Shown in pieces: positions 12,330 through 53,227 of a DNA stretch of 64,000 bases. The translations under genes were made by a program, and so were the position numbers. The notes beneath the pieces are model-generated. The model was not told the origin of the DNA, searched no databases, and saw only the letters and a list, made by a program, of their open reading frames with translations. Each line of letters opens with the position of its first letter. Positions within the stretch are counted from its first letter, which is position 1. Source of the stretch: Armatimonadota bacterium. GTDB taxonomy: Bacteria; Armatimonadota; UBA5829; DTJY01. The DNA lies in the NCBI GenBank assembly GCA_035528905.1, contig DATKXU010000109.1, positions 7,279 through 71,278 on the forward strand, written 5' to 3'.

Positions 12330-13616
12330 ATGGATACCGCGAAATCCTCAGAGTTGTTCGAAGAGGCTCAACGCTACATTCCGGGCGGCGTGAACAGCCC
12401 TGTGCGGGCATTCAAGGCCGTCGGAGGCGGTCCGCTTTTCATAGATCGAGGCAGGGGATCCCACATCTGGGATGCGGACGGCAACAAGTTCATTGATTAC
12501 GTGGGATCCTGGGGACCGCTGATCCTGGGACACGCGCATCCGCTCGTCGTGCGGGCGATCGAGAAGGCGGCCGCACGTGGGACGAGCTTCGGTGCGACCA
12601 CCGAGGCGGAGATCGAGCTTGCGAAGATGATAGTTGACGCGGTGGCGTCGGTGGAGATGGTGCGCCTCGTCAGCTCCGGCACGGAAGCGGTGATGAGCGC
12701 CATTCGCCTGGCGCGCGGGTACACCGGCCGCGACAAGATCGTTAAGTTCGAGGGCGGCTACCACGGCCACAGCGACGCCCTGCTTGCAAAGGCAGGATCC
12801 GGCGTGGCGACGTTCGGAATCCCGGACAGCGCGGGCGTCCCGGCAACGATGACTGCAGATACCCTGGTGCTCCCTTACAACGACATAGATGCCGTCCGCA
12901 CGCTTTTCAAGGCCATGGGGCCGGAGATCGCCTGCGTGGTCATCGAGCCGGTCGCGGGCAACATGGGCGTTGTGATCCCAAAGCCCGGCTACCTCGCCGA
13001 TCTGCGGGAGCTGACCCACAAATATGGGATCGTACTGATCTTCGACGAGGTAATCACCGGCTTCCGCCTCTCTTATGGAGGAGCGCAGAAGCTCTACGGC
13101 GTCATCCCGGACATGACGACGCTGGGGAAGATCATCGGCGGGGGTCTTCCCTTGGGCGCTTACGGCGGCAGGTGCGAGATCATGGAGCAGGTGGCTCCCG
13201 TCGGCCCCGTCTACCAGGCCGGGACACTCTCCGGAAATCCGGTTGCCGTAGCAGCCGGAATCGAGACCCTGCGCATCCTCCGCGATCGAAATCCGTATGC
13301 CGGGCTCGAGGCAAAGACAGCGAGGCTCGGAGATGCGCTGGCGTCAGCAGCCGAGACCAGCGGGATTGATCTGGAGGTCAACCAGATCGGCTCGATGATG
13401 ACGGCCTTCTTCACGCGGGAGGCGGTTGACGATTACGCTACCGCGAAGACCTCGGACACGCGGAAATACGCAGCGTTCTTCCGGGCGATGCTGGAACAGG
13501 GAATCTATCTGGCGCCCAGCCAGTTTGAAGCGGCATTCGTATCAACGGCGCATACTGACGAGGACATTTACCACACGGTTGAGGCGGCAGAAAAAGCGCT
13601 GGCGCTAATAGTATGA
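12330..13616 (+). CDS. hemL: glutamate-1-semialdehyde 2,1-aminomutase
   Basis: [37 protein letters not shown] and FDEVITGFR are diagnostic HemL motifs. Confidence 0.95.
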
Positions 13617-16588
13617 GATTTAGCTTACCCGGAGGAACAACAGTGAAGACTCGCGCAGTCAAGGCATGTATTCTGGCACTTGTGGCATTTGTAGGCGCTA
13701 CCTGCGCCGAAGAATTCGCCATTGCCCGAGACCCCGATCCGCGCTCGCAGGTATTCACGAAAGACGCGGTCCGCCCGGAGCCCACGATCGAGAGCATATC
13801 TCTCGCCCCAACGATTCGGCTCGTGCGGCAAGGCTCGAAGCTGATGCAGGTTGTCGAGCTGACGGTGAAACACAGCCCGAGTCCACAGCCTCTTACAGCC
13901 ACGGTAACCGTGGGCGGGAAGTCCAGGCAAGTCGCGCTGCATCCTGACCCGCCAGGCGACGGAAAATCCGAGCTAACGGTCGCTGAGGTAACAAAGCCCA
14001 CGGTGGTAGAGGTCAGCGTAGGCTCAGGCGGGAACAAGCAGACCGCCGCTTGTGAAATCCGGCCCCAGAGACACTGGAGGGTGTACGTGCAGCCGAGCTC
14101 CCACGTTGATATCGGCTATACAGATCTTCAAGAGCGGGTGATCGCAAGGCACAACGAAAACATGTCACTGGCTCTGGATCTGTGCAAGAAACACCCCGGC
14201 TTCAAGTGGAACACGGAGGTCGCCTGGGTGGAGGACAATTACTTATCGCTCGCGCCGGCAGAGCGCAAGTCCGAGTTTATAAAACACGCTGAGAAGGGCC
14301 TGATCGGCTGCCAGGCTGTCTATGGAAACATGCTCACTGGAATCCTCTCGCACGAAGAGATCATACGGAGCCTCTATTTCGCCCATTCGATGTCGAAGAT
14401 GTACGGCATTCCATTCGACATCGCGATGAGCAGCGATGTTCCGACCCAGGTATGGACTCTGCCCACGGTGCTGGCTGGCAGCGGGATCAAGTATTTCAGC
14501 GCCGGCCTGAACATGTCACGTGGAGGCTCCTTCGATCGCCTGTTCGACAAATCGCCTTTCTACTGGGAGGGGCCTGATGGAAGCCGCGTGCTGGCCTGGC
14601 TCTTACGCGGATATGCATACGCCTACAGGCTTCATCTGTTGTCCAGCGCGGACAAGGCAGAATCCCATATTGAGAAGTTCCTGCAGGGCTACGAGCGCGA
14701 CGATTACCCCTACGATGCCGTACTGGCCTTTGGTGGATTCAGCGACAATCAGCCTCTCGACCCCAGGCTGGCATCCGTGGCCGACGAGTGGAACAGGCGG
14801 TATGCTTATCCGAAAATAATCCTCTGCCGCGGGCCTGAATTCTTCAACTACATAGAGTCCAAGTTCAGAGACAAAACACCAACGATCCGTGGCGACGGTG
14901 GCGCTTACTGGGAGGACGGCGCAGGCTCCTCCGCCCTGGAGACGGCGCTCGTCCGCCGTGCAAAGGAGGACCTGGCGGCTGCCGAGAAACTTCATTCCTT
15001 AACATCATGCCTCGGCGGCGCTGTATATCCCAAAGCAGACATCAACCAGGCATGGAAGGACGCCATCCTGTACGACGAGCATACATGGGGTGCGTGGTGC
15101 AGCATAGACCAGCCGAATTCCGCGCAGACAATCCGCCAGTGGAGGTATAAGAAAGCGTTTGCCGACAACGCAAGCTGTCGGACGGCCCACATAATGGAGC
15201 AGGGCCTCGATAGCCTCGCGAAGATCGTAAAGCTCAAAGAGCCCTCGGTCGTCGTATTCAATCCACTCAGTTGGCCTGTCAGCGGCACGGTCAGGGCTGA
15301 AACGGCGGACGGCAGGCAGATCGAATTCTGGGCGGACGATGTCCCGCCGGTCGGGTACAAAGCATACGCACTGCACAAGCTGCCGGCCGGGCGCACTCCT
15401 CTCCTAACCTTAGGAGAAAGCAGCGACGTGCGCCAGCTCAACCCGAAATCCGAAATCCGTCCCGCCCAAGCGGGATCCCGCCAAAGGCGGGAAAATCCGC
15501 AATCCGAAATCCGCAATCCGAAATTGGAAAACCGCTTCTACCGCCTGGAGTTCGACCGAACCACCGGCGCGATCAAGAGCCTCTACGACAAGGAACTCAA
15601 GCGCGAGCTGGTAGATTCCACGGCGCCCTATGGGATCAACCAGTACATCTATATCAAAGGTCAGGGCGATGGCGCCAGGGACGTTACCTGGAGCGAGAGC
15701 GCTCCGGCTGTAACCTTCGCTGAAGAAAGCCGGCCATGCGCCTCGGTTATGCGCATCCGGGGTTCGGCATACAACACGCCGGAATGGACGACGGAAGTGG
15801 TTCTGTATGGCAATTGCAAGCGCATAGACTTCGAGAACGTTATCAACAAGCAACAAACTACCGAAAAGGAAGCCGGGTACTTTGCATTCCCCTTCTCCCT
15901 GAATAAACCGCAGTTTTACGTGGGGCTGCCCAATGGCGTGATGCGACCGGACAAGGACATGCTCGATGGAGCGTGCATGCAGTGGTACTGCGCTCAGGAC
16001 TTCGTCGCCATCGCGGACGACAAGGGCGCCTTAGTCTGGACAGCCGTGGACAGTCCGCTTATCACGCTCGGCGACATCAACCGCGAGACGTTCAAATCGC
16101 CGCTCCCAATCGAGAACGGCCACCTTTACGCCTACGTCTTCAACAACTACTGGTACACGAACTACAAAGCCGTCCAGGGCGGCGAGTTGAAGTTCCGATT
16201 CTCGCTTACCAGTATACCGAAGTACGATCCAGTCGCCGCCGCCCGTTTCGGCCAGTCGGTGCGCAATCCGCTCCTGTCCAGAGTTTGCGAGCCTTCAGGT
16301 AGACCGTCAACTACCAGCCATGAAGCATCGGCTTCCCTGTGTTCGGTCACACCCTCGAACATCGTCATTCAAGCAGTGAAGAAGGCCGAGTCAGGAGATG
16401 GGCTGATCATCCGGCTGAGAGAGATCTCCGGCAAGAGAACTAAGGCCACCCTTCGCTTCCCCACGAGCCTCAGAGAGGGATGGTCGTGCAGCCTCGTCGA
16501 GGATCCACACACGAAGCTAAGTGCATCCGCCGGGCGCGTGGGCTTGACCGTGCCTGCCAACGGACTTGCCACCATTCTGGTGAGGTAG
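13613..16588 (+). CDS. secreted GH38-like alpha-mannosidase family protein
   Basis: Signal peptide. [10 protein letters not shown] metal-site-like motif near the N-terminal domain. C-terminal [30 protein letters not shown] and NNYWYTNY are typical of GH38 C-terminal domains. The ATG overlaps the hemL stop (ATGA). Confidence 0.75.
15440..15535. repeat. composite repeat inside the GH38-like CDS: heptamer array, two GC hairpins, heptamer array (96 nt, in frame)
   Basis: AACCCGA AATCCGA AATCCGT, then CCCGC-CCAA-GCGGG and TCCCGCC-AAA-GGCGGGA, then AATCCGC AATCCGA AATCCGC AATCCGA AATTGGA AAACCGC. Confidence 0.85.
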
Positions 16589-40243: not shown

Positions 40244-40312
40244 ACTGCAAATTGCAGATTCAGGGTGCCGGATGCCGGCTTGTCTATCGAGCATCCAGTA
40301 TCCAGAATCGCG
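40244..40312. repeat. composite repeat: heptamers, GC hairpin, heptamers
   Basis: ACTGCAA ATTGCAG ATTCAGG, then GCCGG-ATG-CCGGC, then CATCCAG TATCCAG AATCGCG. Confidence 0.7.
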
Positions 40313-44865: not shown

Positions 44866-44875
44866 AGAGATCGCG

Positions 44876-44931
44876 AATTGCAGATTGCAAATTCCAGAAG
44901 CGGGAGGCGGGTTCGATCTGCAATCTGCGAT
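44876..44931. repeat. heptanucleotide array, 8 units in phase, with a GCGGGA-type core
   Basis: AATTGCA GATTGCA AATTCCA GAAGCGG GAGGCGG GTTCGAT CTGCAAT CTGCGAT. The outer units are mutually inverted. Confidence 0.8.
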
Positions 44932-45201
44932 GTACCGGCACAAGTACCGGTTTTTTGTTGGAAGCTCTAGCAGACCCTAAGAGGCGCTTGGCCGCGTGCC
45001 ATAATAAGTAGTAGCTCCAGGAAACGCGGCAAGCAGACCTCAGCGAAGGCCGTTGCAGAGGCGGTCCTGGTTTCAAAAAGGGGCGTCGGCATCCCTTAAC
45101 AGTTTTTCAGCCGGCGCTCCTTTTTTCGTGCCAGCCCAGGACAGCCCCGGCGCAGCAGACCTGAAGCGCCATCGCCAATAACGTCGCAGAGATGAATGAG
45201 A

Positions 45202-47488: not shown

Positions 47489-47746
47489 TCATTCCGGTGG
47501 ACGGCAGCGGGAGCACGGGCGGTACTGCTCTCGGGCGTCTTTGAGAGATATGGGATGCTTGCTGTACTGGAGCGAGCTGCACGAGGCGCGGTGGTAGCAC
47601 TCGCCGGTATCGGTGATGTAGACGGTGACAGCCTGGGGAGCGTTGAGTGTTGAGTGTTGAGTGTGGCGAGCAAGGATGAGCCAGGCGGAGCCGGCCAGGA
47701 GGACGACGGCCAGGATGGGGATGAGAAACTTGGTGCGGTGTCGCAT
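47489..47746 (-). CDS. small membrane-anchored protein with an Ada-like Cys4 zinc-binding motif
   Basis: TM FLIPILAVVLLAGSAWLIL followed by GECYHRASCSSL...YRPCSRCRP (CxxxxC...CxxC, the pattern of the Ada N-terminal Zn site). Confidence 0.6.
   Translation of the reverse strand: MRHRTKFLIPILAVVLLAGSAWLILARHTQHSTLNAPQAVTVYITDTGECYHRASCSSLQYSKHPISLKDAREQYRPCSRCRPPE
47642..47662. repeat. (GTTGAGT)x3 heptamer array inside the 47489-47746 CDS
   Basis: Three perfect units. On the coding strand they encode HTQHSTLN. Confidence 0.9.
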
Positions 47747-50853: not shown

Positions 50854-51315
50854 ATGGAAGTGGAGATACAAATCGAGTGCAAGATGCTGTATTTTCTGGC
50901 GGGGGCGCAGGAATGCGTTCTCGACTTCGAGATCGAGGACGAGGAGAAGCGGCCCCAGCTTCTCAGGATACTGGCTCCGCTGCAAGGAAAGTACGTCCCG
51001 ATATGCGTGAGGGCGAGCGGTTCCGATGGGGATCGGATATTCCTCGGGACGAAGTTATCCGCAGCGGCTCCGGTGGGAGACAGCATCCTGCAGGTGAGCT
51101 TTACACTCCCCGGCAACAAAGCCGGGCCAGGTACGCTGGTCCGGAGGGAAACGATCGGGCGAGCGGCGGCGATCGCGGGGCTCGATGTGAAGCTCTGTAT
51201 GCAGTGTCCGGAGATTGGGACCACGCTAAGACAAGGAAAGGGGATGGAAGCAGATGGGAAGGAAGAAAGCAGGGAAGCAGTCAGCGGACAGCGCTCAGCG
51301 GACAGCAGAGAGTAG
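50854..51315 (+). CDS. phage hypothetical protein
   Basis: 153-aa ORF after GAGGAAAGGG. The 3' end reads into the heptamer array and overlaps the ParB-like start, so the true end is uncertain. Confidence 0.5.
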   Translation: MEVEIQIECKMLYFLAGAQECVLDFEIEDEEKRPQLLRILAPLQGKYVPICVRASGSDGDRIFLGTKLSAAAPVGDSILQVSFTLPGNKAGPGTLVRRETIGRAAAIAGLDVKLCMQCPEIGTTLRQGKGMEADGKEESREAVSGQRSADSRE

Positions 51316-53227
51316 TCAGCAGCCAGCAGACAGCAGCCAGCAGTCAGCAGCCAGCTACGCGGAGATTCCGATCGGGAAGATCGTAGTTAGCGGGGACAAT
51401 CCCAGGAAGCATTTCGACGAGGAGAAGCTGCTGGAACTGGCGGAGAGCATCCGGGCGCACGGGGTGATCGAGCCGATCGTTGTAAGGCCGGTGAGGTTGT
51501 CGGCTGGCGACCGGTTTCAATCCGACGGTCAGGAATACGTGGTGGACGCTCCTGGGGGCGCTGAGGTCCCGAACATCACCTACAAGAGGGAGAAGGCTCT
51601 ACAGCCCGCCTGGGAGACTCACGAGGTATTCGCAGAGAAGCACAGCTTTGACTTGAAAGGCGGGGGTCTATACCGCTACCACCTTATCGTCGGAGAGCGG
51701 CGGCTACGGGCCGCGGTGATCGCCGGGTTGACCTCGGTGCCGGCAATCGTGAAGGAATGCGACGACAGGAAGTCTAGCGAGCTAAGGCTCATCGAGAACT
51801 TGCAGCGGCAGGACCTGGATGTGGTCGAGGAAGCGACGGGCTACCAGGCGTTGATCGCCCTGGGGTACAGCCAGTCGGAGATCGGGGCGAAGGTTGGGCG
51901 AGCACAGCCGACGATTGCGAACAGCATCCGGCTGCTGAAACTGCCGGAGGACGTCAAGGAACGGGTAAGCACTGGCGAGATCTCCGGCAGCCACGGGCGC
52001 GCGCTGGTGCCGTACGCGGAGATCAACCCGGCGGCGGCGTCGGTGTTGGCGTCCGCCGCAGCGGACCACCGCCAATTGACGTCGAAGCAACTGGAACAGA
52101 TGGACTACTCTGTGGCCTGCATGCTCGGAGAGAACCTCTGCGTCCAGATGCGGACGTATGACGCGCCGTTCGTCGAGAAGACGTGTCAGGGCAAATGTGA
52201 TTGCTACAGAAAGGGCGACTGGTGCCTCAAGCCTGAGTGTTACAAGGCTAAGCTGGCCGTTGCCGAGCAGGCTCACCGGAAGCGCGTCGAGGCACTGATC
52301 GCGAAGGCGACGGGTGAGGGAGTGGAGGTGGTCGACCTGTCCAAGCTCAGAAGCGAGAACTACGAAACGCTGCGCGAGGGCCATGTCCCGGACGGCTGCC
52401 GCGAGGATTGCGAACACCGGCGGTTGGGTTCACATCAAAAGGGCGGCGAGCCTTTCTCGGTTTGCGTCAACATGCACTGCTATCGGAAGCTACGGAAGGC
52501 CACGATCAAGGCCAAGAACGCCGCTCGGAAGCAAGAACTGGACCAGCTCCTGAGCCGGTGCATCGAGGGCCTGGACGCGCACCAGAGGTTCGACCGCCTG
52601 GAGGCGGTGGTATGCTGGGAGGCGATTCGAGCGGCGAACAAGGACGTCGTCAAGGCGGCGATCGCCCGGCTCGACCTGCCGCTCGACGTGGAGCTGCTCA
52701 AGGGATTCGGCAAGTTGACGGAGAAGCTGGACGCCCTGCGCTCGCTGCCGGGCACGACCGCGATGTACCTTGCGGCTGAGATTCTTCTGCGCGGGGAGCA
52801 CAAGCAGGCGCTCCCGTCGGGGGAGTATTGCGCCGGAGCGACTCCGGTAGGGATGCAGTGGTATCTCGAGATCGAGGAGACTTCCGGCTCGGCTGAAGGC
52901 GCGGCGGAGGAAGAGACTGTCGAGCAGGCGGCCGAGCCGGCGTCCGAAGACGGCGCTGTTTTCGTCGTTTGCGTGGCCTGCGGGTCGGAACTCCGCCTAG
53001 CCGAGGATTCTGAGAAGGCGGAGGTTGGGGACCCATTCGGGACCGCGTATTGCGCCAACGAGGAGTGCGAGACCCCGGTCATGGTGCCGATCGGGGCGAC
53101 AGTTCAGATCCCAGGGGAACGGTGGACATGGACGGAGATCGGCTGGCAGGGGGTACTGGGCCTCGAAGCCGAACCGCCGATAGACGCCGATGGGAGTGGA
53201 GAAGAGAGCGATGTCGCCGGCGACTAG
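51254..53227 (+). CDS. ParB/Srx-like nuclease-domain protein with a Cys-rich C-terminal extension
   Basis: IPIGKIVVSGDNPRKHFDEEKLLELAESIRAHGVIEPIVVRP and HLIVGERRLRAAVIAGLTSVPAIV are ParB N-terminal boxes. An HTH-like GRAQPTIANSIRLLKL follows, then several CxxC clusters downstream. Confidence 0.8.
   Translation: MGRKKAGKQSADSAQRTAESSQQPADSSQQSAASYAEIPIGKIVVSGDNPRKHFDEEKLLELAESIRAHGVIEPIVVRPVRLSAGDRFQSDGQEYVVDAPGGAEVPNITYKREKALQPAWETHEVFAEKHSFDLKGGGLYRYHLIVGERRLRAAVIAGLTSVPAIVKECDDRKSSELRLIENLQRQDLDVVEEATGYQALIALGYSQSEIGAKVGRAQPTIANSIRLLKLPEDVKERVSTGEISGSHGRALVPYAEINPAAASVLASAAADHRQLTSKQLEQMDYSVACMLGENLCVQMRTYDAPFVEKTCQGKCDCYRKGDWCLKPECYKAKLAVAEQAHRKRVEALIAKATGEGVEVVDLSKLRSENYETLREGHVPDGCREDCEHRRLGSHQKGGEPFSVCVNMHCYRKLRKATIKAKNAARKQELDQLLSRCIEGLDAHQRFDRLEAVVCWEAIRAANKDVVKAAIARLDLPLDVELLKGFGKLTEKLDALRSLPGTTAMYLAAEILLRGEHKQALPSGEYCAGATPVGMQWYLEIEETSGSAEGAAEEETVEQAAEPASEDGAVFVVCVACGSELRLAEDSEKAEVGDPFGTAYCANEECETPVMVPIGATVQIPGERWTWTEIGWQGVLGLEAEPPIDADGSGEESDVAGD
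51278..51354. repeat. heptanucleotide tandem array, 11 units (NNNNCAG), inside coding sequence
   Basis: CAGTCAG CGGACAG CGCTCAG CGGACAG CAGAGAG TAGTCAG CAGCCAG CAGACAG CAGCCAG CAGTCAG CAGCCAG. Confidence 0.9.

Follow-up and report, generated by a model that had tools for sequence, protein, structure and literature searches.

A gene for a GH38-like protein of the alpha-mannosidase family, located in a 64,000-nucleotide (nt) stretch of the genome of an Armatimonadota bacterium (GenBank assembly GCA_035528905.1, contig DATKXU010000109.1, positions 7,279 to 71,278; hereafter the window), carries at positions 15440-15535 a run of 7-nt units interrupted by two GC hairpins. On balance, we judge it probable that this segment is passenger repeat DNA, drawn from a dispersed modular family and tolerated by its host protein as a disordered linker. 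This reading draws on (i) the insertion in the GH38 gene and the disorder of the residues it encodes, (ii) a dispersed family of copies that recurrently reside in frame in other genes, and (iii) polymorphism in both the presence and the number of hairpin cassettes at one site in BirA. From comparison with its orthologues, the enzyme appears to need no insert. That the segment is a non-coding repeat tolerated as a linker, rather than native coding sequence, was also the view of the original prediction, which was made from the letters of the window alone; orthologues, a structural model and the assemblies support it.

The host open reading frame (ORF) encodes 991 amino acids (aa), or 981 aa according to gene callers in other assemblies, which place the start 10 codons downstream. 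Pfam recognized the GH38 N-terminal (PF01074), middle (PF09261, below cut-off), C-terminal (PF07748) and second C-terminal (PF17677) domains. A sequence search of the PDB with the host protein returned no match; the AlphaFold2 (AF2) model (predicted template-modeling score, pTM, 0.81) was matched by Foldseek to the bacterial GH38 structures 2wyh and 5kbp (TM 0.64-0.72, E ~1e-32). Judged by its domains and its modeled fold, the protein is a GH38 member. Its named homologues are from Armatimonadota metagenome-assembled genomes (MAGs). The features of the gene and its insert are as follows.

13613-16588, plus strand: host gene, GH38-like ORF, 991 aa (Pfam, Foldseek)
15390-15434, plus strand: nested hairpin that makes up the linker's left half (inverted repeats, RNA fold)
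15395-15511, plus strand: predicted disordered inter-domain linker, residues 595-633 (AF2 predicted local distance difference test, pLDDT, <50; no secondary structure)
15439-15459, plus strand: left heptamer array, CAACCCG AAATCCG AAATCCG (in the phase of the original prediction, from 15440 on, AACCCGA AATCCGA AATCCG)
15460-15475, plus strand: hairpin cassette A, TCCCGC-CCAA-GCGGGA
15476-15492, plus strand: hairpin cassette D, TCCCGCC-AAA-GGCGGGA
15493-15520, plus strand: right heptamer array, AAATCCG CAATCCG AAATCCG CAATCCG
15521-15535, plus strand: native codons K-L-E-N-R, heptamer-like and outside the insert, AAATTGG AAAACCG C
15443-15496, plus strand: 54 nt missing from the closest orthologue (MAFFT alignment of the window with L001); the edges may slide inside the heptamers

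When the sequence was re-read, the composition proposed for 15440-15535 was recovered, with three heptamers on the left, two GC hairpins, six heptamer-like units on the right and a final C; a repeat search and Tandem Repeats Finder (TRF) also returned the heptamer arrays and both stems. The element begins, as predicted, on a codon boundary of the ORF (15440-13613 = 1827 = 3x609) and spans 32 codons in frame (residues 610-641). When folded, the hairpin pair was more stable than all 200 of 200 shuffles (z = -4.1).

The closest orthologue (P0003/L001), which is 81% identical in amino acid sequence, syntenic and preceded by the same aminotransferase gene, lacks the 54 nt from 15443 to 15496, equivalent to three heptamers and both hairpins. 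At this site it reads CAATCCG AGGCCGG AAATCCG and then continues with the native AAATTGG AAAACCG; in a BLAST comparison of the window with L001, nucleotide identity was ~87% up to 15389, and homology resumed at 15500. As L001 already carries a heptamer array without hairpins, the heptamers either predate the hairpins or can be separated from them. The peptide signature of the element was found in none of the 120 listed homologues outside the window's own cluster, nor did these 120 include a homologous segment of similar length, as an ancestral linker would have left in relatives. By this alignment, the check that the original prediction had proposed, the GH38 segment is a lineage-specific insertion.

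The native K-P-K-L-E-N-R codons are themselves heptamer-like in the window, in L001 and in a further orthologue, L018, where they read AAGCCGA AACTCGA AAACCGC (16/21 positions matching the heptamer) and where the counterpart of 15521-15535 is AAGCCGAAACTCGAAAACCGC. Other repeat DNA occupies the orthologous linkers of the more distant relatives L017, L018 and L019: that of L017 (3200-3283) contains CAGTCCG AAATCCC CAGTCCG CAATCCG followed by CCTTCGCTAAAGCTTCGGCGGGC, a module that also follows heptamers in L008; that of L018 (3270-3330) contains the perfect 22-nt palindrome CCCTCTCCCTCGAGGGAGAGGG; and that of L019 (3250-3310) contains the inverted repeat CCCCCCTCC/GGAGGGGGG, which is also present in L017. 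On the evidence of these three linkers, repeat DNA has landed repeatedly at this site in the clade.

The linker connects a beta-sandwich, itself located after the GH38 core, to the GH38 C-terminal domain. Residues 595-633 were modeled with pLDDT below 50, in keeping with the disordered loop that had been anticipated, and LENR opens a beta-strand (E637-639) in the model. When 28 homologues were aligned, the region from DVPPxGY to LENRFYR was hypervariable and LENR was conserved throughout; LENR(F/Y)Y is kept in homologues. The distance from GY to LENR, 55 aa here, is the longest among the 77 homologues in which it could be measured (median 21 aa). Because LENR is conserved and begins a strand in the model, the last 15 nt (15521-15535) are native codons, and the predicted set of six right-hand heptamers therefore holds for the first four units, while the last two and the final C belong to K-L-E-N-R. 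The left half of the linker consists of a nested hairpin, GGCGCAC...GTGCGCC around TCTCCTAA-CC-TTAGGAGA, which the RNA fold shows as a long stem; it has no second copy in the window and no homology to L001. The whole linker, beyond the 96 nt reported, looks repeat-derived.

The segment and the protein are identical in three independent assemblies (ENA, NCBI and JGI), and L002 matches the window at 99.96% identity over 8.9 kb. In sediment runs, a strain that diverges by ~6-7% in nucleotide sequence retains both hairpins and the left heptamers with no gap; nearby changes in this ~93%-identical strain are mainly non-synonymous. The length of the array, whose stability the original prediction had wished to see confirmed, was accordingly constant across these assembled contigs. 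An assembly artefact was ruled out by the presence of the same protein in three independent assemblies and by the conserved domains that lie in frame on both sides. One contig that was possibly 7 nt shorter at 80% likeness (X6 record 11) was absent at 88% and was set aside as unreliable.

Evidence that the element is dispersed came from metagenomes. In the four soil runs that hold the gene, Logan contigs break inside the element, at 15480 and 15496, and several other contigs, comparable in depth, align with 15444-15517 apart from 2-6 differences. The right heptamer array is matched by hundreds of contigs per run: in runs X1-X8, 200-740 contigs per run matched 15494-15526, and the summed contig depth there was 8,000-50,000 versus 10-20 in the flanks. 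The (AAATCCG/CAATCCG) heptamer is extremely common in soil and sediment metagenomes. A scan for the pattern CCCGC-N3-6-GCGGGAAAATCCGNAATCCG yielded 13 metagenome loci and one genome locus, in a Patescibacteria-labeled MAG, where ~0.01 would be expected by chance on a rough calculation. Viral contigs scanned in the same way gave no match, and thus no sign of a phage vector.

These loci share a grammar, in which two or three AAATCCG units are followed by cassette A, optionally by B and by C, then by D and by two to four further AAATCCG units. Across the family, copies have one to six hairpin cassettes, GC-rich and 16-20 nt long, that all open with T(C/G)CCGC.

Cassette A, family form: TCCCGCC..GCGGGA or ..GGACGG(GA)
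Cassette B, optional: TGCCGCC-TTCG-GACGGCA
Cassette C, optional: TCCCGCA-GCATGCG-CGGAGA
Cassette D, family form: TCCCGCC-AAAG-GCGGGA

The combinations seen between AAATCCG arrays are A-D, A-B-C-D and A-B'-B-C'-C-D. The window copy has the A-D form, as do L008 and L010, two copies that agree with window positions 15452-15506 at 54 of 55 nt and belong to the leader or the N-terminal part of a gene for a PurQ-type amidotransferase; the single loop change lies in cassette A. Cassette D is identical in L005, L008, L010, L012 and L016, and the order A-B-C-D is common to the TrpC and UvrC copies. The hosts range from 42 to 68% GC. No sequence-similar copy was found elsewhere in the window (hairpin at <=3 mismatches; heptamer pair not above chance). 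The original prediction had assigned the same architecture to two intergenic elements of the window, at 40244-40312 and 44876-44931, and this did not hold beyond a general style: both use other heptamer units and fold into one long hairpin each, with arms inverted relative to one another, a different topology. By sequence similarity, the true family members are instead the copies in other genes and genomes.

The host genes of these copies, assigned by open-frame analysis and Pfam, are unrelated to one another and include essential core genes of soil and sediment relatives; all surviving in-gene copies are in frame.

BirA: L005 and L016, in frame
TrpC: L012, A-B-C-D, in frame
UvrC: L013, A-B-C-D, in frame
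DnaE-like protein, C-terminal region: L011, in frame
Radical-SAM/TRAM methylthiotransferase (MiaB-like): L014, in frame
SecA of a Patescibacteria MAG: L003/L015, in frame
Intergenic copies: L004, L006, L007 and L009

AAATCCG is the sense strand in 8/8 coding copies, and all three frames are used. Read in this orientation, the repeat has no stop in any frame and encodes peptides with a grand average of hydropathy (GRAVY) of -0.7 to -2.0, versus the more hydrophobic, F/I/L/W-rich peptides, sometimes with stops, of the antisense strand. Selection for a hydrophilic peptide could therefore underlie the strand bias, and selection at the peptide level would suffice to explain it.

The BirA copies offer a view of the family in motion. 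The loop from KVCGILxE to VVGIGIN has 8-14 aa in most Armatimonadota-like homologues, and in many relatives it holds different 7-aa-periodic, heptamer-encoded peptides (e.g., QSAVCGLQSAVCSL and SQEPGARSQESGVRS). Within one species-level group, whose flanks are 93-99% identical, three alleles were found.

L020, 1150-1200: AGC AAATCCG AAAT TTCC, no cassette (the site reads AAATCCGAAAT only)
L016, 1229-1292, minus strand: two heptamers, A-D and 2.6 heptamers; exceeds L020 by 57 nt
L005, 4077-4212, minus strand: six cassettes, A-B'-B-C'-C-D, within the same heptamers as L016; a further 72 nt

Each length difference is a multiple of three. As far as these alleles can be compared, the series shows that whole cassettes bounded by direct heptamers were recently gained or lost at this site.

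Could the segment have arisen where it stands? Under such an origin, the array would have grown by slippage from the native AAT-CCG-AAA-TTG-GAA-AAC-CGC codons, the hairpins would have formed in situ and nothing would have been imported. The heptamer-like native codons of the window, L001 and L018, the array without hairpins in L001 and a 21-nt TRF period that extends into the native codons are all consistent with this idea. We nevertheless regard it as unlikely, because the stretch holding both hairpins recurs almost unchanged in L008 and L010, and because the same cassettes, in the same order, recur in BirA, TrpC, UvrC and DnaE. The near identity of L008 and L010 in an unrelated gene context excludes that the hairpins arose locally and independently; for these, the dispersed copies largely refute growth in place, while slippage may still account for the length of the array.

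Two functional explanations were found to be less probable still. A 7-nt unit within an ORF is inherently frameshifting, so that gain or loss of one unit might act as a phase-variation switch that turns off the enzyme's C-terminal domains. We hold this to be very improbable, as the segment has the same length in the three assemblies and in the ~93%-identical strain, as no more than 2-4 units of the array are near-perfect, with A/C alternation breaking them up, and as the surviving in-gene copies keep the frame. Neither a supported 7-nt indel or deletion joint at the locus, nor the frame-switching polymorphism in unit number that characterizes a contingency locus, was found in assembled contigs, in which rare variants are invisible. 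Little more can be said for selection on an RNA or DNA structure, with the hairpins serving as a translational pause, an RNase or processing site, or a protein-binding site. The stability of the hairpins, their conservation across ~7% divergence and the sense-strand bias would fit such a role, which we rate as equally improbable: L001 manages without hairpins, near-identical strains have from 0 to 6 cassettes at one BirA site, copies occur in all three frames and between genes, no Rfam family matched the element at E <=1, and the hydrophilicity of the peptide accounts for the orientation bias.

Under the favored reading of tolerated passenger DNA, a copy in a naturally variable linker would be translated into ~25 extra hydrophilic residues. 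Its persistence could be explained by four circumstances: (i) the AAATCCG strand is free of stops in three frames; (ii) it yields a very hydrophilic, loop-like peptide; (iii) within genes, only copies with a length that is a multiple of three would survive; and (iv) the linker site would be tolerant of changes in length. We infer that cassettes are copied between heptamer arrays at the DNA level, with the arrays serving as short homology, and candidate processes include template switching, gene conversion or a site-specific activity. The heptamer-like K-P-K-L-E-N-R codons may have favored capture at the GH38 site, and the length of the array is probably tuned by slippage.

Several points weigh against this reading. 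For both GH38 and BirA, the length difference may be read either as an insertion or as a deletion between the direct heptamers on each side. The indifference of the GH38 enzyme is read from orthologues and a structural model, and any mobility, like any enzyme responsible for it, is hypothetical. The scan of genome contigs did not include the window's own genome, such that intragenomic copy number rests on the Logan contigs of similar depth. Finally, persistence across ~7% nucleotide divergence could also be compatible with some benefit.

A bolder proposal is that the hairpin cassettes on AAATCCG constitute an active, SDR-like (see below) micro mobile element that crosses phyla, copies itself into heptamer arrays or heptamer-like codons, grows by cassette addition (0, 2 and 6 at BirA) and routinely remodels the loops of essential proteins among uncultured bacteria of soil and sediment. 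We advance this only tentatively, considering it possible and rather doubtful. Were it so, the heptamer arrays could be landing pads or footprints, and the element would be among the smallest mobile elements known.

Two known systems resemble the element most closely. Rickettsia palindromic elements (RPEs) are selfish repeats found in Rickettsia, each a single palindrome 100-150 bp long, that are translated, lie in surface loops and are dispensable in orthologues; as reportedly described by Ogata and colleagues in 2000, they are dispersed hairpin repeats lying in frame within unrelated, often essential genes. The family described here likewise resides in frame in unrelated genes (GH38, BirA, TrpC, UvrC, DnaE, MiaB-like and SecA), of which alleles or orthologues without the element exist. 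It differs in being a chain of 16-20-nt hairpins with heptamer flanks and in having Armatimonadota-like and Patescibacteria hosts; the comparison is one of behavior, not of sequence. In Nostoc and Anabaena, Elhai and colleagues are said to have found, in 2008, small dispersed repeat (SDR) hairpin modules of 21-27 nt within short tandemly repeated repetitive (STRR) heptamer sequences, mostly intergenic. Shared with these are an over-representation of period 7 (10 arrays in the 64-kb window versus 0.1 in dinucleotide shuffles) and small hairpin modules inside heptamer arrays in modular combinations; in contrast, the present cassettes are 16-20 nt long, are found repeatedly in frame within genes and occur in hosts that are not cyanobacteria, outside the heterocystous group to which SDRs are reportedly confined. 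The AAATCCG unit, moreover, is common to organisms of 42-68% GC, and the likeness described is one of build. Because the size and taxon that define RPEs and SDR-in-STRR elements are not those found here, the element is best taken as an analogue of the former in behavior and of the latter in build, not as a member of either.

Repetitive extragenic palindromes (REPs) and the bacterial interspersed mosaic elements (BIMEs) that they form are extragenic, GC-rich, imperfect palindromes with a 5' GTAG-type tetranucleotide, linked to REP-associated tyrosine transposases (RAYTs) and devoid of heptamer flanks. The family resembles them in its tandem clusters of small GC-rich palindromes of different subtypes and differs in that many copies are intragenic and have heptamer flanks. 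Heptameric simple sequence repeats (SSRs) of Xanthomonas and Nostoc (GGGNATC) are also over-represented at period 7, mostly in non-coding DNA near gene ends (PMC4692102), an over-representation that the window shares. A text search of the literature for (AAATCCG)2 returned no relevant paper.

For the enzyme, the finding is an ordinary one, and the NPKSEIR-type peptide should not be annotated as functional. The family, in turn, is a tractable natural system in which to study how repeats of such small size disperse when no transposase is evident, and how repeat DNA creates and lengthens protein loops. Such elements fragment short-read assemblies and can mislead the placement of domain boundaries by homology. 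What is new here is the grammar of hairpin cassettes and the BirA allelic series.

A number of further repeats were noted beside family copies. AAATCCG arrays often give way to a common A-rich sequence, AAAT(C/T)CG AAACAAAT(T/C)CAAATGA..., in organisms of 42-60% GC; it is translated within the SecA insert of Patescibacteria and could represent an additional family module. Its sites are as follows.

L003, 1608-1660: A-rich continuation
L016, 6326-6390, minus strand: A-rich continuation
L004, 7790-7860: A-rich continuation
L007, 178-240 and 230-297, minus strand: A-rich continuation

At L009 (1560-1680), the D cassette and a (CAATCCG)n array are joined by a left arm, (TTGCGGA)n, that mirrors the array, and by outer flanks in inverted orientation, the whole making one long palindrome; judging from its layout, this links the in-gene form with direct flanks to intergenic hairpins with inverted arms, such as that at 44866-44935 of the window. 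In the PurQ-like protein of L008, a low-complexity stretch at residues ~215-245, GGSGVGCSVSGVGGPQSPNTQHPTPDT, splits the GATase_5 match and is probably another repeat-derived loop.

Within the window, periods 8-11 showed no comparable excess over shuffles, and the other period-7 arrays have different units and are mainly intergenic. Two of them appear to be coding: (GAGTGTT)4 at 47638-47664 falls within a minus-strand ORF for a small membrane protein, and AGCAGNC, in 11 units at 51276-51355, lies at the 5' end of ORF 51254-53227.

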